From: an uncultured delta proteobacterium
GTDB lineage: Bacteria; Myxococcota_A; Polyangia; Polyangiales; Houyiibacteriaceae
Assembly: GCA_963699755.1 (NCBI GenBank)
Contig: CAVOVB010000001.1
Location: forward strand, 768,001-832,000
DNA length: 64,000 bases
Direction of reading: 5' to 3'
Shown: piece after piece, positions 26,170 through 61,328 of the stretch
Position numbering within the stretch: position 1 is the stretch's first letter
Layout of the letters: every line of letters starts with the position of its first letter
The notes under the pieces: generated by a model
Told to the model about the DNA's origin: nothing
Database searches by the model: none
What the model saw: the letters and a program-made list of their open reading frames with translations, nothing else
Program-made: the position numbers and the translations under genes

Positions 26170-28962
<2,793 letters not shown>

Positions 28963-37206: not shown

Positions 37207-37611
37207 TCAGCGCTGGCACTCCGGATGAGACGCACAATCGGCGCAAACGCATCCCTCCACGAAGGCCTGGCAGTTGCCGTTGTCGAAGCAGTTGGCCGGA
37301 TTGCTGCAGAAGCTGTCCTCGTCGCAATCGACGCACACACAGTACTCGCCGTCATTGCAGACGCCGTTGTAGGTGCAGAACTCGCTACTACCCCCCGTCG
37401 CGCCCATGCCACCCATTCCACCGTTGCCGGCCAGACCACCGGTCCCGGCTTCACCGCCGCTTCCGCCCGTGCCGGTCGTTCCGCCGGTGCCGCCGCTTCC
37501 ACCGGTTCCACCCGTCCCCGTGCCACCAGCTCCGCCTGCGCTTTCGCCCGTGCCACACGCCGCCAATGCCAGCGCCAACACGATACCCAACACTCGAATC
37601 GAAGTGCCCAT
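37207..37611 (-). CDS. Gly/Thr-rich, Cys-rich lipoprotein
   Basis: Lipobox LAAC, (GGTG)n linker and two C..NG.C...E.CVC.DC repeats; RBS GGAGG. Confidence 0.75.
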   Translation of the reverse strand: MGTSIRVLGIVLALALAACGTGESAGGAGGTGTGGTGGSGGTGGTTGTGGSGGEAGTGGLAGNGGMGGMGATGGSSEFCTYNGVCNDGEYCVCVDCDEDSFCSNPANCFDNGNCQAFVEGCVCADCASHPECQR

Positions 37612-37814
37612 AGTGCCTCCAGTCGTCGGACTCGAGAGTCCACTATAACCGTCGGCGCGATTCCTTGATAGGGGTCGGCGTTAGCCCACTGACGAGCAGG
37701 ATCGACTGGCCGCCCAGCAACCTGGGTCCACTGATTCCTCTCGGATCGTGGAGGCGCGCAACGACGGCTCCAGCTTCATAGAAGCTCAGAAGCAAGGGAA
37801 AACGGGAATCGTTC

Positions 37815-37966
37815 GGCCGATCGAACGCTAAAAACTGAATCGGAATCGTGCAGAGCTCAGCGAGCTGAGACCGCCTAGGTATTACTCGGATATGACCATA
37901 TACAATTCTCCTTCGAGCAAACGCTCCTTAGAAAGGAGGTGATCCGGCCGCAGGTTCCCCTACGGC
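37815..37966 (-). repeat. Displaced copy of the 16S rRNA 3' end plus 3' trailer (direct repeat of 43090-43241)
   Basis: Gapless 152-bp hand alignment, 129/152 identical. Includes the helix-45 and anti-SD sequence. Confidence 0.95.
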
Positions 37967-38094
37967 GAAGGAGCACTCTACCCCAGCCGTCCGATCTTGC
38001 CGCGACTCGTGGGACCCGTTCACATAAGCGCGCTTCAGAGCCTTCGAAGCGCGAAGAACACGTCTCCCGCGACGCGCAAACCGTAAGAAATGAC

Positions 38095-38897
38095 ATGAGC
38101 ATCTCAGCGGCAGCACGCAAGGTGCAAATGGTTGGGCCGTCCAACGAGCGCATGGCCTCTCGAAGCACGATGAAGGTCTTTTGGACCTGCACCGCGCTCG
38201 TCTGGGGTGGCGTGGGTGTCTGTGCGGGCCTGTTCTTCGTGGGCGTCCTGGAGTTCACCACGAGCACCAAGATCGGGCCCTACGGGATCAGCATCTGGTT
38301 GAACGTGTGGATGCTCGTGTTCGTGCTGCCGCAGGACAAAGGTCGGTCGAAGCTGGACCTCCACCACGGCGCCCTGGTCCTGTGGATGCTCTCCTATATG
38401 CTGACCAACGCCTTATGGGAGATCCCCTGGGTGGTGTTCTCCCCCTTCGTGTTCGACAACCTCCACACGCTCGACGACGTGGTGGCGCATACCGGGTTCA
38501 TGCGCGAGAGCGTGCTCAACATGTACTGGTGGGTGCTGGCGTCTTTCAGCTCCGTGGATCTACGCACCGTCAACCACAACTCTACGTTCTACACGCTGGA
38601 GCTCTACGCCTTCGTGAACGTTCTGTCGGTCATCTGCTTCTTCTACCTGAACAAGAAGCGTTCGCGCTATCGCTACCTGATCCCGGTGCTCGGAAGCGGC
38701 GAGCCCGTGGCATCGACATTCATCTTCTCCTTCTCTGAGGTGTTCGCCGGCTTTGAAAACATGCCGGGCGGAGTGGCCGACACCCTGCTCGCCCTGGTCT
38801 GGACGCAGTCCAGTACTTCCTGTTCCCTCTCATCTTCGGATACTTCGGCGTGAAGCTGCTGATCGGAGATTGGCGTCAGTGCCACGTCGGAGGATAG
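38095..38897 (+). pseudogene. EBP/EXPERA-like membrane protein with a frameshift near the 3' end
   Basis: Polytopic; LWEIPW and SVDLRT...FYTLE motifs. A 1-nt loss at ~38810 (TGG ACG CAG T-C CAG TAC TTC) cuts off the last TM helix QYFLFPLIFGYFGVKLL, which ends at TAG 38897. Confidence 0.6.
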
Positions 38898-38920
38898 GGG
38901 CGTAGCCACTCAACAGAGCT

Positions 38921-38979
38921 CTCAGAAATCTAATTCGGAATCGCGCATAGCTGGAACAGCGGTGCCGGTGTTGCTCCGA
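38921..38979 (-). repeat. Decayed 16S-trailer copy
   Basis: 38921-38960 matches 43101-43140 at 30/40 without gaps; GGTGTTGCTCCGA resembles GGTATTACTCGGA. Confidence 0.75.
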
Positions 38980-39004: not shown

Positions 39005-39781
39005 ATGCAACGGCTCATCACCCTCGCCTTTTCGCACTACAATGAGAAGGCTCGATGGGTGCTTGAGCGATTTGCCCTGCCCTACCAAGAGGAACCGTAC
39101 CTGCCGTTCTTCTGCTCGATGGCAGTCGCCGTATCCACGCGCGGTCGAGGAGGTGCAGCCGACCGAACGTCGTCGCGGTACTCGACCCCGGTCCTCTTCA
39201 CGGAGGACGGGCGCGTGCTCACCGATTCGACGGAGATCGTGAGATTCGCTTCAGGTAGCGAAGCTTCATCGTTTCTGAGCCCTGAAGTAGACGCTCTGGT
39301 CGATCACTACGGCGACCGGCTGGGTCCATACACGCGCGTACTCGCGTACTGGCATGTGCTCCGACATCCCGGGATGATCGAACAACTCGCCAAGGCCAAC
39401 GTGAGCCGCCGGCAAGCGCAGATCTTTCGGAAGCTGCTTCCACTGGTGAGGTCAAACCTGGAACGTTTGTTGAATCTCAGCGAAGCCAGTCGAGACGAGG
39501 CGGTGTCACGTCTGCGCGAAGAGCTCGACACGACCGCGGCGAGGCTCGAAGGGGACCGGTACTTGTGCGGCGATCGGTTCACCGCCGCCGACCTCACGTT
39601 CGCCGCACTCCTCGCGCCAGTCCTATGCGTCACGCCCGAGGAGGGCTACGGCGCGGTACTGCCGTCGATCGACGCTCTGGACGGGGAAGCGAGAGAGCTG
39701 GTCGAAGAGACCCGGGCCCATCCCGCAGGACAGTTCGCACTCCGCATGTATGCGGAAGAGCGCCGCCGAATCGTCCGCTGA
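39005..39781 (+). CDS. Glutathione S-transferase family protein
   Basis: FSHYNEKARW, TPVL...LTDSTEI and YLCGDRFTAADLTFAAL motifs. Confidence 0.9.
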   Translation: MQRLITLAFSHYNEKARWVLERFALPYQEEPYLPFFCSMAVAVSTRGRGGAADRTSSRYSTPVLFTEDGRVLTDSTEIVRFASGSEASSFLSPEVDALVDHYGDRLGPYTRVLAYWHVLRHPGMIEQLAKANVSRRQAQIFRKLLPLVRSNLERLLNLSEASRDEAVSRLREELDTTAARLEGDRYLCGDRFTAADLTFAALLAPVLCVTPEEGYGAVLPSIDALDGEARELVEETRAHPAGQFALRMYAEERRRIVR

Positions 39782-39789
39782 GAACTGAA
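39765..39789 (-). repeat. Short 16S-trailer remnant overlapping the GST stop codon
   Basis: 39770-39789 ATCGTCCGCTGAGAACTGAA vs 43095-43114 ATCGAACGCTGAAAACTGAA is 17/20, preceded by GCCGA. Confidence 0.65.
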
Positions 39790-39790
39790 C

Positions 39791-40310
39791 GTGACTGAGA
39801 ACGTCGAAATCCGAGAGAGCGCGGCGGACGACTTGGCTGTGATCGAATCACTCTACCCGGAAGCATTCCCGGATGAGGATCTGTTGTCTCTGGTACGAGA
39901 GCTATTGAGGGGATTGTCGCCCACCCTTTCGCTCGTCGTGGTGATCGATGGCTTGCTCCTTGGACACGCGGTCTTCACGGGGTGTTACGTAGCCGAGAGC
40001 TCCGGCGCGGATGCTCTTCTTGGACCGGTTGCCATCGCACCCGCCGGGCAGAGAAGAGGAGTCGGCAGCGCGAGCCGGATTGCAACGCCTCGAAGACGCA
40101 GGCGTGACCCAAGTGTATCTATTGGGCGATCCCAGCTACTATGGACGTCTTGGTTTTAGGGCCGAGACTCGCGTCGCGCCACCCTATGAGCTGCCGCTTG
40201 ACTTGGTCGGTGCCTGGCAGTCACAGAGCCTGTTCGGTGCTGCAGAGCCACGTTCGGGAAAGCTCGTGCTACCCGGCCCGTGGCTTAGTCCGGCTTTGTG
40301 GGCGCCGTGA
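39791..40310 (+). pseudogene. GNAT acetyltransferase (YhbS-like), frameshifted
   Basis: Frame 1 ...LGPVAIAPAGQRRGVGSA continues in another frame as RAGLQRL...VYLLGDPSYYGRLGF...WAP*. Small deletion at ~40070. Confidence 0.85.
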
Positions 40311-40350: not shown

Positions 40351-40421
40351 TCGGTCGAACCTTTCCCGAAACATCGGTACGAGGAACCGAAGTCCGATAT
40401 GATCGGTTACATCTCTCTTTC
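40351..40421 (-). repeat. Decayed 16S-trailer copy
   Basis: 40390-40421 vs 43158-43189 is 22/32; 40351-40360 TCGGTCGAAC vs CCGATCGAAC is 8/10; the blocks are in the same order. Confidence 0.55.
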
Positions 40422-40423
40422 TC

Positions 40424-41086
40424 CTAGGAGCTCCCGGAAGGAATCGCGGGGCCGCCCTGGGCCTCTGCGCGTTGGTAGGCGGGGCGACTCGTCACTCGGT
40501 CCCGCCAAGCCGACATGTTGGGGCGCTCACCTTTCGCTCGGGATAGTGCGGCCTCGACCGGATAGAACATTTGGATGTCGGCGATCGAGAAGGTCTGGCC
40601 TGCGAAGTACGGTCGCTCAGCGAGAGTCTTTTCCACGAAGCCGAGGTGCAGGTCGAGCGCAGGCGTGGTGTAGCTCTCGTCCACTTTGTCCGCGATGCCG
40701 CGCGCGATGGGCTTGATGAAGAAGGGCATGGGCGCAGACCGCATCCTGTCGAAGATGAGTCGGACCAAGAGCGGCGGCATCACGGACCCCTCGGCGTAGT
40801 GCAGGAAGAACGTGCACTCCAAGTTCTCCGCCTTGTCGGTAGGCCTCAGCTTCCCCTCGCGACCGGCGAAGTATTCCATCACGGCCCCCGACTCGGCGAG
40901 CACGCACCCGTCGACCTCCACCATTGGAAAACGTCCAAGCGGATGCACTTCAGTCGCCGCCGCTGGCGCTCGAAAGTTCTTGTCACGCTCCCAGGATTGG
41001 ATGCTGTACTCCAGCCCGAGCTCCTCGAGGAGCCACAGCACGCGCAGCGAGCGAGAGTAGTTGAGGTGGTAAACTTTGATGCTCAT
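40424..41086 (-). CDS. Glutathione S-transferase
   Basis: SRSLRVLWLLEELG, HPLGRFP, LAESGAV and FSIADIQM motifs. Confidence 0.93.
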   Translation of the reverse strand: MSIKVYHLNYSRSLRVLWLLEELGLEYSIQSWERDKNFRAPAAATEVHPLGRFPMVEVDGCVLAESGAVMEYFAGREGKLRPTDKAENLECTFFLHYAEGSVMPPLLVRLIFDRMRSAPMPFFIKPIARGIADKVDESYTTPALDLHLGFVEKTLAERPYFAGQTFSIADIQMFYPVEAALSRAKGERPNMSAWRDRVTSRPAYQRAEAQGGPAIPSGSS

Positions 41087-41117: not shown

Positions 41118-41562
41118 ATGGTATCGGAAGACAGACGGCGTTGTGGCCGAGCTGGGCGAACACGCCCTGAAGCCGTGGCGCGTGTCCGCGAGCGTGCCGA
41201 GGAGCTCGGAGAGCCGCTTGCGCTCGCAATCATCGTCAAGCAGCCTCGAGCGACCCAGCGAAGAGATCCGAGAAGACATTCGGCAGGCATTCGATGAAAT
41301 ATCGCCGATGCTCGTATGCAACGCGATCGCCATCCTAGGCCCGGGCTTCTTCGCGAGCTTCTTCATCAGCATCATCTCGCAGACCGTGCGCCTCACCCGA
41401 AAGCTAGGAGCCAGTTACCGGATCCACTCTAGCCTCGAATCGGCCGCGTCATGGATGCACGAGCAGCTGGACGACCCGAACATCACGAGCGAAGAAGCTC
41501 TAGAGACCTTGCAGTGGGCGGTCGATCAGACGCCGACGCCACATGCGGGCGACACGGATTGA
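41118..41562 (+). pseudogene. Myxobacterial hypothetical protein, probably frameshifted
   Basis: GRTRPEAVARVRERAEELGEPLALAIIV in one frame joins plausibly to SLERPSEEIREDIRQAF...GPGFFASF in another at ~41238. Start uncertain. Confidence 0.5.
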
Positions 41563-41617
41563 ACGTCAGGTCGTAGAAGTTCTCCGCCGGGCCGAGACGA
41601 GCCATGACAGAAGCACT

Positions 41618-41655
41618 GATCGCTCGATGAATCGCATCTCCTGAGATAGTTACTA
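41618..41655 (-). repeat. Possible highly decayed 16S-trailer copy
   Basis: 41618-41631 vs 43094-43107 is 11/14; 41646-41655 ATAGTTACTA vs 43150-43159 ATAGGTACTA is 9/10; collinear with an internal deletion. Confidence 0.45.
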
Positions 41656-41659
41656 GCGG

Positions 41660-42203
41660 GTGCGTCGAATCGTTCGCGCCGCCGTTCTCGCCGTCGCCGC
41701 AATTTCTTCGACCGCGCTCGCGCAGCCGGAGGCGGTAGACTCGGACGCTGATTCGTCGATCGTGGCGACCGTTGCCGGGCGCTCCAGACGTAGCGACCGC
41801 GCCAGACCTGGCGACCAAACCGGACGCTTCGCCGTGTGCAGATGCCTTCTTTCAGTGGGAGCTCGAGGACGCGAAGGCTCGGAGCAGGCGCGCGCGCAAC
41901 GCATTGATCGGGACAAGTGCCGCCGTCGGCGTAGGAGTTGCGTTCATCGCACTTGGCAATTCCCAGTGCCAAGTCGTCTCCCCGGCTGGTCGAGACGATG
42001 CGCTCCTGTGCAACAACACGGGCGACCTGCTCTGGGGCTTGGGGGTCGGCATGACCGTGACCGGCGGCATTGGCATGATTACCTCGGCCATCATCCTCGG
42101 TGTGGCCAACAAGAGAGTCCGCCAGACCAAACGTGACATCCGGAACCGCTACTACAGCCGGAAGGTCCGCTGGGACGCGCCTTCCGGCGGCTTCACGTTT
42201 TAG
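41660..42203 (+). pseudogene. Exported 2-TM hypothetical protein, frameshifted
   Basis: Signal peptide MRRIVRAAVLAVAAISSTALAQ is in one frame; the TM-containing body ending ...GGFTF* is in another. Shift lies before ~41775. Confidence 0.65.
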
Positions 42204-42229
42204 TAGTCGTCGTGATTCAACGCCCTTGG

Positions 42230-42259
42230 TGAAAGCTGAACTGGAATCGAGCAGAGCTC
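42230..42259 (-). repeat. 16S-trailer copy (processing-stem core)
   Basis: TGAAAGCTGAACTGGAATCGAGCAGAGCTC vs 43104-43133 TGAAAACTGAATCGGAATCGTGCAGAGCTC is 26/30. Confidence 0.85.
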
Positions 42260-42279
42260 GAAAGGCTTGCGACTGCACC

Positions 42280-42783
42280 CTATTCGTCGTCGATGGCCGC
42301 CCTACGTCGGTCTCTCACCGCGCGTAGCTCTTCTTCGAGGATTTTGTCCTTGCCTCTTCCGACGTATGCTTTGACCTCGATCAACGCATCGAGATCGATG
42401 ACGTCGAATAGCCTCTCTGGCAACAAAGGCAGTCGCACCGTGGGTAGATCCGACACCTTAGCGAAGGGCTCGACTTGGGAGAGAACGTCGAGTCGGCCGA
42501 GCTCGGTCTCCACGAGCAGCAAACGGAACGTGGCGAGCGACTCCGCGTTCTCGGCAACGAGGGGAAGATCGGGCCGCGTGAAATGGACCGGCTCAAAGGG
42601 AGCCAACGCGGCGAGGAGCGTCCGGATCTTGTCAGCGTCCAGCTCCATCGCGATGTCGAGATCCTGAGTCGCTGTCGTCGCGCCGTGCGCGATCGCGGCC
42701 ACGCCTCCTACAACGACGAAGCTGAGCCCGGAGTCTGCCAGAACCTGGAGCAGGCGCTCGGTTTGCTGCTGGGGACTCGTCAC
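42280..42783 (-). CDS. Pol-beta-superfamily nucleotidyltransferase (DUF6036/AbiEii-like), putative toxin
   Basis: FVVVGGVAAIAHG...TQDLD, LGRLDVL and K...GRGKD motifs; GTG start overlaps the upstream TGA. Confidence 0.8.
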   Translation of the reverse strand: MTSPQQQTERLLQVLADSGLSFVVVGGVAAIAHGATTATQDLDIAMELDADKIRTLLAALAPFEPVHFTRPDLPLVAENAESLATFRLLLVETELGRLDVLSQVEPFAKVSDLPTVRLPLLPERLFDVIDLDALIEVKAYVGRGKDKILEEELRAVRDRRRAAIDDE

Positions 42784-43016
42784 TGCGGAACCGACTCGCC
42801 CCAGCGACGAATGGCCTCGTCGACTTGGGCCTTTCGCAGTGAGGCGCGCTCGCCCTCGCTTAACGTGCGTGCCTGCATGCGTTGATACATCCGAACACGC
42901 TCGAAGTGGCGCCGCATTCGTTCTTCGACGGAAAGTCGAAGGTTCTCTTCGATCAGCCGGGTATCTACGCCAAAGTCGGCCACCTGATCCCGAACCTGGT
43001 CCGCGCCCCGAGTCAT
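42780..43016 (-). CDS. Small helical protein, putative partner/antitoxin
   Basis: 78 aa containing GVDTRLIEENLRLSVEER; translationally coupled (GTGA) to the nucleotidyltransferase. Confidence 0.7.
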   Translation of the reverse strand: MTRGADQVRDQVADFGVDTRLIEENLRLSVEERMRRHFERVRMYQRMQARTLSEGERASLRKAQVDEAIRRWGESVPQ

Positions 43017-43070: not shown

Positions 43071-43094
43071 AAAAAGCGGCCATTCCATGGGCCG
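43071..43094 (-). terminator. Intrinsic terminator of the 16S transcript
   Basis: Minus strand CGGCCCATGGAATGGCCG-C-TTTTT: GC hairpin plus U-tract directly after the trailer. Confidence 0.65.
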
Positions 43095-43103
43095 ATCGAA
43101 CGC

Positions 43104-43122
43104 TGAAAACTGAATCGGAATC
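43104..43122 (-). repeat. 3' arm of the 16S processing stem
   Basis: Exact 19-bp reverse complement of 44982-45000; flanking CGATCGGC also pairs. Confidence 0.85.
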
Positions 43123-43198
43123 GTGCAGAGCTCAAACAACGTTCTCTGCATAGGTACTACTCGGATATGACCAGAACTATTTCTCTTTCGAGAAATTG

Positions 43199-44756
<1,558 letters not shown>

Positions 44757-44981
44757 AACTGTTGAGCTGGTTATCCTGTTGTCCCAAGCCAGCCCTGGTG
44801 AGGTCTCCGAATCGCTTGCGCGATTCACCTCACCGCCTCTTTCGAGAAGCTGCCTCAGGAACAGAGCATCACATTTGTTTATTGCGTGTTGCTCTCGGAT
44901 TGCGGTCATTTAGACCGCCTCTTGAATTGACCCTAGTCGCGCGTTTTGTTGCACGACTCGGGACCCGAGTACGTAACTATT

Positions 44982-45012
44982 GATTCCGATTCAGTTTTCA
45001 ATGATCGATCGG
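44982..45012 (-). repeat. 5' leader arm of the 16S processing stem
   Basis: GATTCCGATTCAGTTTTCA...TCGATCGGC is inverted relative to the trailer at 43090-43122. Confidence 0.85.
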
Positions 45013-45047
45013 CGGAATGCCCGCAGACCCCCTGCAAAGGGACGCCG

Positions 45048-56219: not shown

Positions 56220-59200
56220 CTAATTGCGCCTATAGCGACGAATCGCCAAGCCAAAACCAAGCATCAGTAAAAGAAGAGCACCCTTCGGTCCCCCTTGGCC
56301 AGGCGCCCCGATACTGCAACCAACGCCGCGTCCGCCCATAAGAAGGAGGCGGCCGGGGCCTTGCGGCTCACCGAGCTCTTCCAAGTAGTCCGGAACGCCG
56401 TTGCCGTTCTCGTCCCCTGCCTCGTCACCGTCGTCGGTGCCATCACCATCGCTGTCGGTGTCGAGCCAGTTGACCAGTCCATCGCCGTCCGGGTCATTGT
56501 CGCCGAGCGTGTTCGAATCCTCGAGCTCGACAGCCGTATCGATGCCGTCACCGTCATCGTCTTTGTCCAAGTAATTCGGCGTGCCATCGCCGTCCGTGTC
56601 GTCATCCGTCGGATCCGAATCCCCGTCTGGGCTCTCGTCCGCCGTGTCGATGCCGTCACCGTCATCGTCCTCGTCGTTGAAGTCCGGCGTCCCGTCCTCG
56701 TCCGTGTCCGGACAGCTCGAAGGCTGGAGTGGGCTTCCGGGCGCTGGGCATTCCACCGCATCGGGAATCCCGTCACCGTCGGAGTCGGGGACGTCGGACT
56801 CACGACGGCAGCTGCTGTTGCAGCCATCGCCATCGACCGCATTTCCGTCGTCACACTCCTCCCAGCCGGAGGCGAGGTCGATCACGCTGACCCTGTCGTC
56901 GCCGCAAACATCGAGGTAGTCGGGCCGTCCGTCGCCGTCGCTGTCCGGGCAACCGGCTCGAAAGTCCGGGCACTCGTCGAGCGTCGGCGCTCCGTCGTCG
57001 TCGTCGTCGGGGTCGAGGTAGTCGGGCGTGCCATCACGATCGGAATCCTCGTTCGTCGGGTCGCGGTCCCCGTCATAGTTTTCGTCGGCGGTGTCAATGC
57101 CGTCGTCGTCGTCGTCCGGGTCTTCGAAGTTGGGGTCCCCGTCGCCGTCCGTGTCGGGACAGCTCTCGGGGGTGCCAACCGGGTCACTGGGTGCCGGACA
57201 TTCGATGACATCGGGAATCCCGTCGCCATCGGTGTCCACAGGCGTATTGTCGGCATCTAGGTAGTCCGGCGTCCCGTCGTTGTCTCCGTCCGGACAAGGA
57301 GCGCCTGGATCGGTGCATTCGAACACCGTGTCCACGCCGTCGGCGTCATCGTCGGCGTCCTGGTAGTCGGGAACCGAGTCCCCGTCCGTGTCTTGGGTGG
57401 GCGCGCTGGTGCCGCCGTTGTCGGTGTCGAAGGCGTCGTCGAGGCCATCACCATCGGTGTCGAGGTCGAGCGGTGCCCGATCTGCGATGCCACTCATGTC
57501 CGCGTCGTGGCCTTCAACCGAGTCGACGATGCCGTCGCCGTCCGAGTCCTCGTCGAGGTAGTCGGGCGTGCCGTCCGAATCCGATGTCTCACAGCTCGTG
57601 CCCGTGCTGCACTCGACCACGTCGGTGATGCCATCGCCGTCGCTATCGATATCGCGGTGGTTTGGAACGCCGTCCCCATCCGCGTCACAGGCATCCGGAT
57701 TGACGCCGCATTCGGTCGCCGTCGGGATCCCGTCGTCGTCGTCGTCAGGATCCATGTAGTCCGGGCTTCCGTCGTCATCGGTGTCGACGCATCCCGCGAC
57801 GTTACCCGCGCATTCGACCTCGTCAGGGATCCCGTCCCCGTCCGTATCAGTTGGGAGATTGTCCGGGTCCAGGTAATCCGGTGTCCCGTCGCTATCGCCA
57901 TCGGGGCAGCCCGACAGGGCGTCGGGGCATTCGAAGGCCGAGCCAACGCCATCTCCATCGTCGTCCGGATCTCGATAGTCAGGCGTACCATCACCGTCGT
58001 GGTCCGGAAGCGTTGCGGGAACGCCGCCGGCCATGTCGAGGTCGTAGGCGTCATCGAGGCCGTCTTCGTCGTCATCCATGCCAAGCGGCGCGAAGTCAGG
58101 CTCGCCGTCGGCGTCGCCGTCATGGCCTTCAACCGCGTCCAAGATGCCGTCGTCGTCGGAGTCCGTGTCGAGGAAGTCGGGGGCGCCATCGCCATCCGAA
58201 TCTGCGCATGCGGTGGGGTTCTCGCACTCCACACGATCGGCTATTCCGTCGCCGTCGCTGTCTTCATCGATGTAGTCGGGCCGATCGTCGCCGTCGCGAT
58301 CTTGCCCCGTGGCGCCGATCCCGCCCTGATCGATGTCGAAGGCATCGTCGATACCGTCTCCATCGGCGTCCACGCCGCTCGGAACGGCCTCAGGCTGCCC
58401 ATCGGCATCGCCATCGAAGCCTTCGACGCGATCGAGCAAGCCGTCGTTGTCGCTGTCGGCGTCCAGGTAGTCGGGCGCGCCATCGCCATCACGGTCGGGC
58501 ACGGGCGCCACGATCCCGTCCGCAACGCAGGCTCCCGGCATGCCGGCACAATCCGCGTCGAAGGCGTCGTCGAGGCCATCACCGTCCTCGTCGTTGCTGA
58601 CCGAAACCGAATCCGCGATGCCGTCCGCGTCCGCGTCGTGTCCTTCGGTGCTATCCGGAAGGCCGTCTCCGTCGCTGTCGAGGTCCAGGTGGTTTGGCAG
58701 GCCGTCGCCATCCGCGTCCACATTCGTCGGCAGAGAGTCACAGATCCCGTCGGGCTCCGCGTCGCTGCAGGTCACCGCATCGGGGTCTGTATAGTCTGGG
58801 ACGCCATCGCCATCATCGTCGAGCGACCAATCGGTGCCGTCGCCTTCCTCGGTGTCGACGATGCCGTCGGCGTCATCGTCGATGTCGACGTCGTCGCGGA
58901 TCCCATCGCGATCGCTGTCCGGGTAGTCACAGGCATCGTCATCGGTGCAGACCTTGAGACCAGGGCAGTCCTCGTCCGAGAGACATTCGACGCAGGCACC
59001 GCCAGCGACCGAGGTGTCACAAAGAGCCATCCCTGCCGCGGTGCAGCCACTGTCCATCGCGCCGCCGCTCATGTCGTCGAGGCACAAGACGCAGGCACTT
59101 CCCGCCGCGCCGGTCGCCCCGTTGCAGACGGGCAGTGCCGGGTTCGTGCAGCCCTCGTCCGGATTCGCTCCGGCCTGGTCGTTGACGCAGGCCACGCAGG

Positions 59201-61328
59201 CGCCCGGGCTCGACACCGAGGTGTCGCAAACCGCCGCATTGCTGTCGGGGCAGTCGGAATCGTCGAAGCAGCCGGCAACACAGCTGTCCGTCGCTACATC
59301 ACAAGCGTCGCCGGAGCCGCAGTCGGCAGATTCGGTGCAGTCGACGCAGATCGGATTGCTCCCGCTCTCGTCGCAGGCATTGTCACCGCCCGAGCAACCG
59401 ACGTCGGTCGCTCCCGAGCCGCTATCCACGCATCCCGCAACGCAGAGCGGAAACACACCGCTCGCGTCGCAGTAAGGGGCGACGCCCCCACATCCGGCGT
59501 CGATATTCGTTCCAGTCTGGTCATCGAAGCAGACGACACAGCCCAATCCGCCGGCGTCGCACTGACCGGTGGCGCACTCCGAGCCGAGCGTACAGCCCGA
59601 GCCTTCTTCGAGGAGGCAGATGCTATTGCAGCCATCGAGGGCGTCGGTATTGCCGTCGTCGCAAGCCTCGCCCGATTCGACCGTGCCGTTGCCGCAGGTG
59701 TCGGCTGGCTCGCAGACCGCTGGAACCTCGTTGAGATCGCAGACGCCGCTCGCGCACTCGGCACCGGCCGCGCAGCTCTCATCGAGCTCTTTCAAGCAGC
59801 TGTCGTCGCAGCCGTCGCCAGTGGCCGTCCCGCCATCGTCGCAACCTTCCCCTGATTCGACAGCGCCGTTTCCACAGATGTCGGCGGGCTCGCAGCTGTT
59901 GCTTCCAAGGGTATCGCAAACGCTGCTCTCGCACTGGGCGCTTGCGGTGCAGGCCTCATCGTCTTCGAGCAAGCAGGTGGTTCCGCAGCCATCGCCGGCG
60001 TCAGTCGAGCCATCGTCGCAGGCTTCCCCCCCCTCGACCTTGCTGTTGCCGCAGCTGCCCGCCGCCTCGCAGACGGGCGGAAGCTCCGTGGAATCGCAGA
60101 CCCCGCTCTCGCACTCCCCATCGTCGGTGCAACCCTCGAAGTCCTCGAAGAGGCAGTTCGGGCTACAGCCGTCGCCCGACGCCGTGTTGCCATCATCACA
60201 GGCTTCACCCACCTCCCGTTTTCCGTTGCCGCAAACCGGTTCGGTGAAGAGCACCAAGGGACAGGTGCCCGTGATGTTTTGGGCGTTGGTGAAGTTCACC
60301 TGCATGAACGTCGTCGTGCCGCTGTCCGAGATCTGTGGCGTCCAGCTGAACGTCGTGTTGAAGGGGCTCGCGCCGCTCGTTCCCTCGGCGGGGTTGAACG
60401 TCGCGGTGGTGGGCTTTCCGGTCACGCTGAGCGTGAGGTTGTTGCCAGGGTCCGTGGCGCTCAGGACCTGCGAAAACGGAACACCGATCGGCAAGGTGAA
60501 GACGCCGCCGTCGGGACAAGTCGGGACGGGTTCAGACACGATCTCGACGAGAAGGTCGAGCGCCGTTCTGCTCGCCAAGGGCGGAGACCCGTGCGTCGAT
60601 TCGAGAACGACGTGAACGACATATTGCTGGCCGCCGACCGCGTTGGTCAGATCCCAGGTCATGCGGCATTCGTTGGGACTTGGCGTCGTCACGGAGGGCT
60701 GTGCCCCACCGTTCGGGACGGTTGGAAGCTCTTGCCCGGCGGGCAGGCCAGATTCCGCGCTCGTCGCGAAGCGACAGCTGACCGGATCACCGTCGGCGTC
60801 GAACGTCAGAAAGTCATGGGTGCGGACCCCTCCACGCTCCAACTGCACGATGGCCGTGGACCCGGTAGCAAGTGGCGCCGTATTGCCGTCGCCGAGGCCG
60901 ACGGTAGCCTCCACGCGAAAGTTGGCGTTGGCGCCGTTCTCGAGCCCTGCGACACGACAGCAGGAATTGAAGAACGCCGTGTACTCTCCCTCGCCTGGGT
61001 AGTCGTGCGTCACGACGTACTGACTCGTGCTGTACGCGTTGCCGACGGTGTCGACCCCGCTTCCTATCACCGTGCCGAGAACGGGGCCGTTCGAGGTGCC
61101 GTCACCGAAGTTGAGGTTGGTGCTGTCGAGCGCTCCGTCCCGCCAACTGGTGGTCACGGTGAACTCGACGCGAAGCGGAAAATTATCCGGATCGGGCGTT
61201 CGCCAGTTGATCGTTCCGTGGCGGAAGTGGCTTGCGCTGGCGTCAGCCGACCAACCCCAGGTGCAAGCCAGTGCGACACATGCGACGAGCGCGTGATTCA
61301 AGACTCTATTTCCCACAGCTTCCTCCAA
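56220..61328 (-). CDS. Giant surface protein: N-terminal 'HFRHGTINW' domain, Cys-rich DUF4215-type repeats, many DxDxDG Ca-binding (TSP type-3-like) repeats, MYXO-CTERM-like tail
   Basis: Signal peptide; repeated CGNG..E.GE.CDDG and D.D.DG.PDY.D.D.D.DG; tail GCSIG...LLLLMLGFGLAIRRYRR. Exact start uncertain. Confidence 0.85.
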   Translation of the reverse strand: MEEAVGNRVLNHALVACVALACTWGWSADASASHFRHGTINWRTPDPDNFPLRVEFTVTTSWRDGALDSTNLNFGDGTSNGPVLGTVIGSGVDTVGNAYSTSQYVVTHDYPGEGEYTAFFNSCCRVAGLENGANANFRVEATVGLGDGNTAPLATGSTAIVQLERGGVRTHDFLTFDADGDPVSCRFATSAESGLPAGQELPTVPNGGAQPSVTTPSPNECRMTWDLTNAVGGQQYVVHVVLESTHGSPPLASRTALDLLVEIVSEPVPTCPDGGVFTLPIGVPFSQVLSATDPGNNLTLSVTGKPTTATFNPAEGTSGASPFNTTFSWTPQISDSGTTTFMQVNFTNAQNITGTCPLVLFTEPVCGNGKREVGEACDDGNTASGDGCSPNCLFEDFEGCTDDGECESGVCDSTELPPVCEAAGSCGNSKVEGGEACDDGSTDAGDGCGTTCLLEDDEACTASAQCESSVCDTLGSNSCEPADICGNGAVESGEGCDDGGTATGDGCDDSCLKELDESCAAGAECASGVCDLNEVPAVCEPADTCGNGTVESGEACDDGNTDALDGCNSICLLEEGSGCTLGSECATGQCDAGGLGCVVCFDDQTGTNIDAGCGGVAPYCDASGVFPLCVAGCVDSGSGATDVGCSGGDNACDESGSNPICVDCTESADCGSGDACDVATDSCVAGCFDDSDCPDSNAAVCDTSVSSPGACVACVNDQAGANPDEGCTNPALPVCNGATGAAGSACVLCLDDMSGGAMDSGCTAAGMALCDTSVAGGACVECLSDEDCPGLKVCTDDDACDYPDSDRDGIRDDVDIDDDADGIVDTEEGDGTDWSLDDDGDGVPDYTDPDAVTCSDAEPDGICDSLPTNVDADGDGLPNHLDLDSDGDGLPDSTEGHDADADGIADSVSVSNDEDGDGLDDAFDADCAGMPGACVADGIVAPVPDRDGDGAPDYLDADSDNDGLLDRVEGFDGDADGQPEAVPSGVDADGDGIDDAFDIDQGGIGATGQDRDGDDRPDYIDEDSDGDGIADRVECENPTACADSDGDGAPDFLDTDSDDDGILDAVEGHDGDADGEPDFAPLGMDDDEDGLDDAYDLDMAGGVPATLPDHDGDGTPDYRDPDDDGDGVGSAFECPDALSGCPDGDSDGTPDYLDPDNLPTDTDGDGIPDEVECAGNVAGCVDTDDDGSPDYMDPDDDDDGIPTATECGVNPDACDADGDGVPNHRDIDSDGDGITDVVECSTGTSCETSDSDGTPDYLDEDSDGDGIVDSVEGHDADMSGIADRAPLDLDTDGDGLDDAFDTDNGGTSAPTQDTDGDSVPDYQDADDDADGVDTVFECTDPGAPCPDGDNDGTPDYLDADNTPVDTDGDGIPDVIECPAPSDPVGTPESCPDTDGDGDPNFEDPDDDDDGIDTADENYDGDRDPTNEDSDRDGTPDYLDPDDDDDGAPTLDECPDFRAGCPDSDGDGRPDYLDVCGDDRVSVIDLASGWEECDDGNAVDGDGCNSSCRRESDVPDSDGDGIPDAVECPAPGSPLQPSSCPDTDEDGTPDFNDEDDDGDGIDTADESPDGDSDPTDDDTDGDGTPNYLDKDDDGDGIDTAVELEDSNTLGDNDPDGDGLVNWLDTDSDGDGTDDGDEAGDENGNGVPDYLEELGEPQGPGRLLLMGGRGVGCSIGAPGQGGPKGALLLLMLGFGLAIRRYRRN

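Follow-up and report, generated by a model that had tools for sequence, protein, structure and literature searches.

The closest described relatives of the locus reported here are islands at tRNA and tmRNA genes. In islands of the Islander type, an integrase is required, the target gene is regenerated, a displaced 3' fragment of it is left, and tandem arrays occur; the available part of that account does not mention rRNA (PMC4383910). The accessible text of PMC10872708 describes additive islands in which repeats of a tRNA-Lys end serve as marks. In what is available of PMC4033161, rRNA genes are proposed as anchors of replacement flexible islands, including the rRNA-flanked island of Pelagibacter. 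Transformation generates duplications through repeats, according to the accessible part of PMC3784515.

Another relative is homology-facilitated illegitimate recombination. It is said to be a laboratory process, attributed to de Vries and Wackernagel in 2002 and Meier and Wackernagel in 2003, that uses engineered anchors and usually deletes recipient DNA. Homology-facilitated recombination is also cited in the available text of PMC13344027 and PMC2884548. A literature search, conducted largely outside subscription papers, found no published description of displaced rRNA tails that bound cargo.

The window analysed here, a stretch of 64,000 nucleotides of a delta proteobacterial genome (G000), contains a stand-alone 16S rRNA gene and, behind it, a second 16S 3' end. 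Between the resident trailer and this displaced copy lie cargo segments and decayed trailer remnants, here called scars. The features, in the direction of 16S transcription, are:

44955..45020, minus strand: arm of the 16S leader that pairs with the trailer to form the processing stem (inverted match of 44982-45024 with 43122-43076; co-fold)
43205..44756, minus strand: stand-alone 16S rRNA gene (Rfam RF00177 at 43207-44756), the proposed long homology anchor
43071..43204, minus strand: resident trailer with two hairpins, two leader-pairing arms and a terminator-like hairpin, nearest to the G060/G020 type
42280..43016, minus strand: cargo 1, a small open reading frame and a nucleotidyltransferase-like gene (DUF6036, E 0.0024, below the cut-off)
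42229..42274, minus strand: scar 1, a decayed 3' part of a trailer (E 3.6e-4)
41308..42203, plus strand: cargo 2, two open reading frames without known family, common to G060
40424..41086, minus strand: cargo 3, glutathione S-transferase
40390..40435, minus strand: scar 2, a decayed 5' part of a trailer (E 2.6e-3), preceding a module found behind the live trailer of G060
39791..40310, plus strand: cargo 4, a GNAT-like remnant (PF00583, E 0.006, below the cut-off)
39762..39846, minus strand: scar 3, a decayed outer arm recognisable at about 39762-39792 (E 3.5e-3)
39005..39781, plus strand: cargo 5, a second glutathione S-transferase-like gene
38918..38967, minus strand: scar 4, a decayed 3' part of a trailer (E 2.9e-3)
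38090..38853, plus strand: cargo 6, a gene without known family
37967..38021, minus strand: left flank of the copy, with G060 homology (40/55); marginally 16S-like, possibly an older remnant
37950..37966, minus strand: helix-45 5' part of the copy, the final stretch in common with the G060 block (15/17) and the presumed crossover zone
37799..37966, minus strand: displaced copy, comprising helix 45 and the anti-SD (the terminal 37 nt of 16S) and a decaying trailer of the G004/G005/G019/G022/G023 hairpin type
26170..28587, minus strand: monomeric isocitrate dehydrogenase (TIGR00178), the conserved far boundary of the variable region

The 16S gene is complete (positions 1-1533 of the Rfam model) and is the single full 16S detected by BLAST in the whole assembly; the tRNA-Ile/Ala-23S-5S unit is located 156 kb away. 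Compared with 15 congeners, it shows 30-69 differences in 1,550 nt (95.5-98% identical). By the names found in an rpoB cluster, the genus belongs to the Polyangiales/Myxococcales. Cargo 1, judged from its gene content, is a putative toxin-antitoxin pair.

In a search within the window, the displaced copy (37815-37966) matches 43090-43241 without gaps over 152 nt, with 129 of the 152 sites equal (84.9%; 23 mismatches; E 2e-42). It lies on the minus strand, the same as the 16S gene, 5,275 bp behind it, and extends through the anti-SD and the trailer, which confirms the displaced 16S 3' module reported in the first-pass annotation. The clustering of mismatches noted there is reproduced as well: five fall in 37905-37899 and 11 in 37872-37860, that is, 16 of the 23 in two short blocks, and the block of 11, which lies in a variable hairpin, distinguishes lineages. 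In the 37 nt of its 16S part the copy has a single change, of a kind that still allows pairing, and the near-palindrome at its start is helix 45, found in all 16S genes aligned here. The single change previously counted in the processing-stem arm is correct for the outer arm (37830), but the inner leader-pairing arm has additional changes at 37882 and 37875. The terminal hairpin is weak, as had been stated (-5.4 kcal/mol), and a terminator scan gives no call there. Immediately behind the copy, 37207-37611 encodes a Gly-rich, Cys-rich putative lipoprotein, an orthologue of which is absent from the relatives' regions.

The two trailers come from different lineages. In a comparison with 32 live trailers from the genus, the copy comes closest to that of G004 (13 differences), followed by those of G019, G022 and G023 (15), with which its second hairpin is in common, and the resident is nearest to that of G060 (9 differences); thus two lineages are joined at this locus, as the first-pass annotation had proposed. 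The copy is dead and decaying. Eight of its states are absent from all 32 live trailers, five of them in the 88 invariant columns, while leave-one-out analysis of the live trailers gives at most four private states, and none in 26 of the 32; the resident has three. The first trailer hairpin has a folding energy of -5.6 kcal/mol in the copy versus -12.9 in the resident, and co-folding with the leader gives -78 for the copy, -96 for the resident, and -91 and -90 for foreign live trailers. The rRNA-like divergence described at first sight is therefore not confirmed, and because of the eight private changes the view that the copy was a functional 3' end until recently is unsupported. In G050 (L196) the live trailer carries ~25 inserted nt at the second hairpin's foot, where several scars begin.

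In anatomy the block is like the known additive and tRNA islands, to the extent that these are covered by the available sources: the target gene is intact, a same-strand displaced 3' fragment lies downstream, cargo lies between, and the units are stacked. Target, integrase and fixed site are unmatched. The target here is the place where an rRNA transcript ends (16S, 5S) and the window has no tRNA; no integrase is found in or near the block; the left ends vary, with one cluster of about six; and the tails are of two lineages. Neither an excised circle nor an empty-site joint was found among the joints listed from four low-depth contig sets. The block resembles homology-facilitated illegitimate recombination in having one long anchor, here 16S, a short second joint at variable places and no dedicated enzyme. 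It differs in that the anchor would be a cross-species rRNA gene, the recipient retains its tail and scars of earlier events are used again. With the replacement islands, as presented in the accessible text of PMC4033161, it has in common that rRNA genes are proposed as recombination anchors for variable gene blocks, but in those islands entire blocks are exchanged, with a conserved flank on either side, whereas here cargo is also added and tails are left over. Integrons differ in two ways: no PF00589 integrase is found within 300 kb of this block, nor any tyrosine recombinase on the 16S contigs of G015, G051, G054 and G059, and the separators here are rRNA-trailer remnants, not attC, Rfam detecting only 16S in the window. 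An rRNA intron or intervening sequence differs in that the 16S gene here is unsplit. The block is best read as an integrase-free additive island at free rRNA ends, a variant of the additive islands.

The region behind the 16S gene is highly variable in the genus. The distance from the 16S end to the isocitrate dehydrogenase gene ranges from 1.2 to 19 kb in ten genomes, and the first 1.2 kb behind the trailer form 33 clusters among 36 regions. Several cargo segments of this block directly adjoin a live trailer elsewhere: cargo 1 in G004, the glutathione S-transferase module (cargo 3) in G005 and in a relative on a contig of run X2, cargo 4 in G060, and cargo 6 in G015 and G042. G060 has five cargo segments of this block, four of them in the same order. 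G023 has a truncated piece of cargo 6, its trailer being joined to the middle of that segment. Short homology is seen at second joints in the genus, namely the 15/17 stretch that ends the G060 block and a 6-nt common word at the G023 junction.

A model derived from 18 live trailers picks up four same-strand scars between the resident tail and the copy (E 4e-4 to 3.5e-3), in agreement with the older internal scars supposed earlier; in the 24-37.7 kb part of the window its best match has an E of 0.9. Same-strand displaced 16S trailers are present in 5 of 36 genus regions (G000, G015, G051, G054 and G059), or 5 of the 22 having at least 10 kb, and the other 31 of the 36 show no scar at E 1e-4. 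Controls gave one E 1.8 match in each of two. A 16S-side match in G061 (E 0.05) was left out of the counts, and a match on G042 C141 (E 0.002) overlaps two coding regions and was taken as chance. In 33 genomes from other genera of the family, three short matches were followed up and proved to be contaminating 18S, a chance similarity and a foreign 16S. The left ends of the displaced tails spread over ~280 nt in the numbering of the present gene: that of G059 is at 16S position 1364 or earlier, that of this copy at 1516, and the farthest at ~1643. In the G059 scar, deletions have brought together three pieces, namely 16S 1364-1387, a portion of helix 45 and the outer arm. About six scars begin within ~20 nt of one another (~1605-1628), where the second trailer hairpin has its foot; this cluster could reflect a preferred site, and shared ancestry may account for some of its members.

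The same layout is found at the 5S gene. Displaced tails lie behind 5S in three of the 36 genomes with a 5S match (G000, G016 and G061), with three different left ends. In this genome (C1:647475-647561; L269 11476-11552) a decayed 5S 3' half with its terminator, 74% identical and beginning mid-gene, lies 3.5 kb behind 5S. A whole displaced 5S is present in G016 (C39; 95.5%, 7.6 kb behind 5S) and in G061 (C3; 92%, 7.8 kb behind 5S). These two displaced genes have different starting points, the cargo in between is unrelated, and the same three core genes follow beyond. Between the 5S copies, G061 carries a DabA/B-type carbon-uptake cluster and purK/purE homologues (L259 4525-11915), and G016 a fatty-acid-synthase-like cluster (L258 4973-11522). 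Since the relatives show the same layout behind 16S and 5S with no integrase nearby, free rRNA ends are likely landing pads for ordinary recombination.

The first-pass annotation placed the start of the copy precisely at helix 45. The high-identity part does open at the first base of that helix, but the 55 nt upstream of it also match the G060 block (40/55). Homology to G060 runs over this flank into helix 45 (15/17) up to 37950, 55/72 ungapped in all, and then diverges; beyond the 17-mer, the G060 sequence is possibly a far more decayed trailer (p 0.07, weak alone). Among 55 genomes the flank is seen in no other besides G060. It is marginally 16S-like (p 0.02-0.075), with a p of 0.004-0.016 for a 25-nt window that was picked after the match had been seen. 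Because the homology crosses the flank into helix 45, the junction region must be older than the present copy, and the fresh tail was likely joined inside a pre-existing helix-45-like stretch. In keeping with this, the copy has 8-13 changes where one of the flank's age should, by a rough estimate, have ~23. The proposal of a last crossover in helix 45 thus stands, since homology to the G060 block ends there. The palindrome as a dedicated crossover core does not: left ends in the genus are scattered, no recombinase is near, and because older homology lay at this place the palindrome needs no special role.

The polarity of the last event is less clear-cut. The backbone on both sides of the block is 81-87% identical to G060/G020 versus about 77%; the gene just upstream of 16S, 16S itself and one gene downstream show no preference or incline towards G005/G023. 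As the backbone is mostly closest to G060/G020, which have the resident type of trailer, this suggests a native resident and a copy that came in later, overwriting an old scar. The original proposal was the reverse, that the copy is the host's old end pushed 5.3 kb outward; the backbone speaks against it, and the 5S cases of G016 and G061 favour such displacement. Which partner was the chromosome, and which trailer is native, is about equally likely either way. A long foreign tract behind the copy was rejected, the genes at 34.5-34.8 kb and 31.5 kb grouping with G020/G060, and rpoB cannot serve to indicate the host lineage, since two rpoB genes are present in the bin.

Taken together, the copy is dead, a 16S 3' end and trailer displaced to the outer margin of a stack of accessory genes, and this stack was probably built by repeated homology-anchored recombination at the free end of a stand-alone 16S gene, with no integrase close by. 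DNA of a congener, probably taken up by transformation, would pair through the nearly invariant rRNA gene as the long arm and would bring its own trailer and downstream genes. The other end would close at a short homology or an old scar; with the second join in or before the recipient trailer, the recipient tail would be displaced behind the new genes. Displaced tails would erode by point changes and deletions and later be reused as joints, RecA-type recombination being the likely builder of the island. In the last swap the crossover probably fell within the 17 nt of helix-45-like sequence at the end of a G060-type block, which it joined to a then-functional tail of another lineage, and such a crossover would explain both the helix-45 start and the freshest state of the most distal copy. 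Homologues of comEC, dprA and comM are present in this genome; most control genomes have them too, so competence is putative.

A wider reading seems possible, although on balance doubtful. Free rRNA ends, once operons are unlinked, may be universal enzyme-free platforms of gene capture in bacteria and archaea, with the rRNA gene as a cross-species anchor. Each capture would leave a tail, and the tails would be joints for adding and reshuffling modules between species and for trading with tRNA islands, in an integron-like manner in which the att sites are rRNA processing arms. If this is true, the most conserved gene of the cell is also an entry point for foreign genes that requires no mobile-element enzyme, wherever its transcript ends freely. 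It would also give a testable reason for the variable DNA beside rRNA genes and predict more stacks in lineages with unlinked rRNA genes. As a caution, 16S ends, spacers and whole 5S copies in genome bins may be mosaic or orphan.

Pieces of rRNA also occur away from these sites. Seven of nine off-site fragments examined lie within a tRNA island or no more than 2.5 kb from the 3' end of a tRNA (G000 C10, G014, G022, G044, G046, G059 and G068), compared with 5 of 28 other two-copy repeats in G000, and four are beside recombinase genes or their remnants. Thus integrative elements do carry rRNA pieces. Two of the off-site fragments are internal rRNA pieces, for which tail-anchored insertion does not account, and the fragment in G046 may be an assembly effect, since no 16S is assembled in that genome. 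In G000 (C10:155504-155565; L031) a 62-nt internal 16S piece (helix 44 region, 94%) lies upstream of a broken tyrosine integrase, beside tRNA-Arg. Fragments of 16S trailer or 5S are found at tRNA islands of six relatives in both orientations (L032 6861-6925, L182 3798-3876, L199 14804-14864, L201 2856-2904, L265 1913-2067 and L270 5748-5821).

Among the alternatives, site-specific accretion fares best, although it is unlikely. Here, integrative elements, or integrase-less derivatives served in trans, would insert at a fixed site (in helix 45 or where the second hairpin has its foot) and regenerate the tail in the manner of tRNA islands. The regenerated target and displaced 3' fragment are the anatomy of tRNA islands, as given in the available part of PMC4383910, about six scars begin near the second hairpin, and rRNA fragments lie beside recombinases at tRNA islands in G000, G022, G059 and G068. 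The left ends vary, however, at both the 16S and the 5S sites, and two of the integrase-adjacent fragments are internal pieces, unable to restore a gene. A Pfam scan of 25 + 74 + 40 proteins (this block, the relatives' blocks and the 5S sites) gave just two recombinase or transposase matches, both at tRNA sites, and among the 39 serine recombinase matches listed none is at a 16S locus. The serine recombinase of G068 was rejected as the agent, as it abuts tRNA-Met, and 33 other loci (serine recombinase matches, viral loci and one further locus) hold no credible trailer. The genus has a family of ~570-aa serine recombinases (L201 439-2133 and loci L203-L215), the G068 member of which ends in tRNA-Met.

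Pattern searches bear on the same alternative. The first-pass annotation had suggested looking for 16S 3' fragments that start at helix 45 beside integrases; searches of genome, metagenome and viral collections established no such island among the matches listed. Of 123 matches listed from the genome collection, 120 are preceded by normal 16S sequence and three are contig ends, and helix 45 as a general integration site was rejected on this pattern. Normal archaeal 16S genes dominate these matches; one displaced case begins ~20 nt before helix 45. The exact-junction pattern yielded four metagenome contigs, none established as an island, three of which resemble divergent small-subunit genes, and the viral scan found one ordinary 16S. 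In the fourth metagenome contig (L175 2127-2161) 16S begins one base before helix 45 and is followed by a spacer and a tRNA, and the 2.1 kb upstream are non-16S; this upstream DNA may be an intron, though Rfam detected none.

Insertion that duplicates a long stretch of the target is a good deal less probable. Long duplications of variable length, with no mobile genes, are known from the accessible text of PMC2853133, and the present repeat (152 nt, against more than 30 bp there) and insert (5.3 kb, against less than 20 kb) are within their range. An archaeal contig filed under a bacterial bin (L081, 794-854 and 1615-1675) has a perfect 61-nt duplicate of a 16S end around a two-gene module, which by eye looks like a RelBE-type pair. 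The known cases in that text carry restriction-modification genes, but none were found in this block or in the relatives' blocks; rRNA is absent from the available part of that paper, and the repeats here are 85% alike. The tails are of different lineages, so a second event would be needed, and the G060 homology ends inside helix 45.

It is very improbable that selection maintains the copy, whether for a small RNA (a decoy for the anti-SD or the processing stem) or for a terminator that serves the cargo. The copy has changed less than its flank would lead one to expect, with ~23 changes expected at the flank's age and 8-13 seen (Poisson p 0.0003-0.017, a rough estimate); its 16S part is nearly unchanged, and a TAnnnT hexamer lies 8 nt upstream. 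On the other hand, its changes hit invariant columns and break the first hairpin, its fold z-score is -0.7 versus -2.3 for the resident, neither a promoter nor a terminator was called at it, and the G060 counterpart is heavily decayed.

Hardly any likelihood is left for RNA-templated capture, in which read-through pre-rRNA would be reverse-transcribed and then inserted. Many left ends at the 5' feet of hairpins, internal rRNA pieces off-site and one reverse transcriptase in the assembly are in keeping with it. Against it, blocks of 3-13 kb move together with genes on both strands and upstream regions, the scars join mature-rRNA and trailer sequence, and the reverse transcriptase gene is 800 kb away.

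That the copy is an assembly artefact from a co-binned congener is the least credible of all: the bin is mixed, one of its two rpoB genes is 99% identical to that of G023, whose trailer has the hairpin type of the copy, and none among the read-contigs listed spans 37966/37967, but the copy differs from the G023 trailer at 15 of 152 sites, its flanks are 74-82% like G023, a contig of run X1 (possibly the source study) covers 37643-37917 with zero differences, the G060 homology crosses the junction, and the mixed segment is 760 kb away. The X1 contig joins the 3' 103 nt of the copy to unique downstream DNA. With a single 16S in the assembly, a second rRNA locus or a collapsed assembly, raised earlier as a possible source of the copy, falls away. 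The sole X1 contig over part of the resident trailer has five differing sites and is apparently from another strain; runs X5-X10 hold small shares, X5 as short pieces only. About 350 kb are duplicated at ~82% between C1 (1.57-1.95 Mb) and C7 of this genome, with two rpoB genes, and the bin or contig C1 mixes two congeners. Elsewhere in the window, 56400-60250 contains long imperfect internal repeats (65-80%), probably belonging to a gene for a repeat-rich protein.
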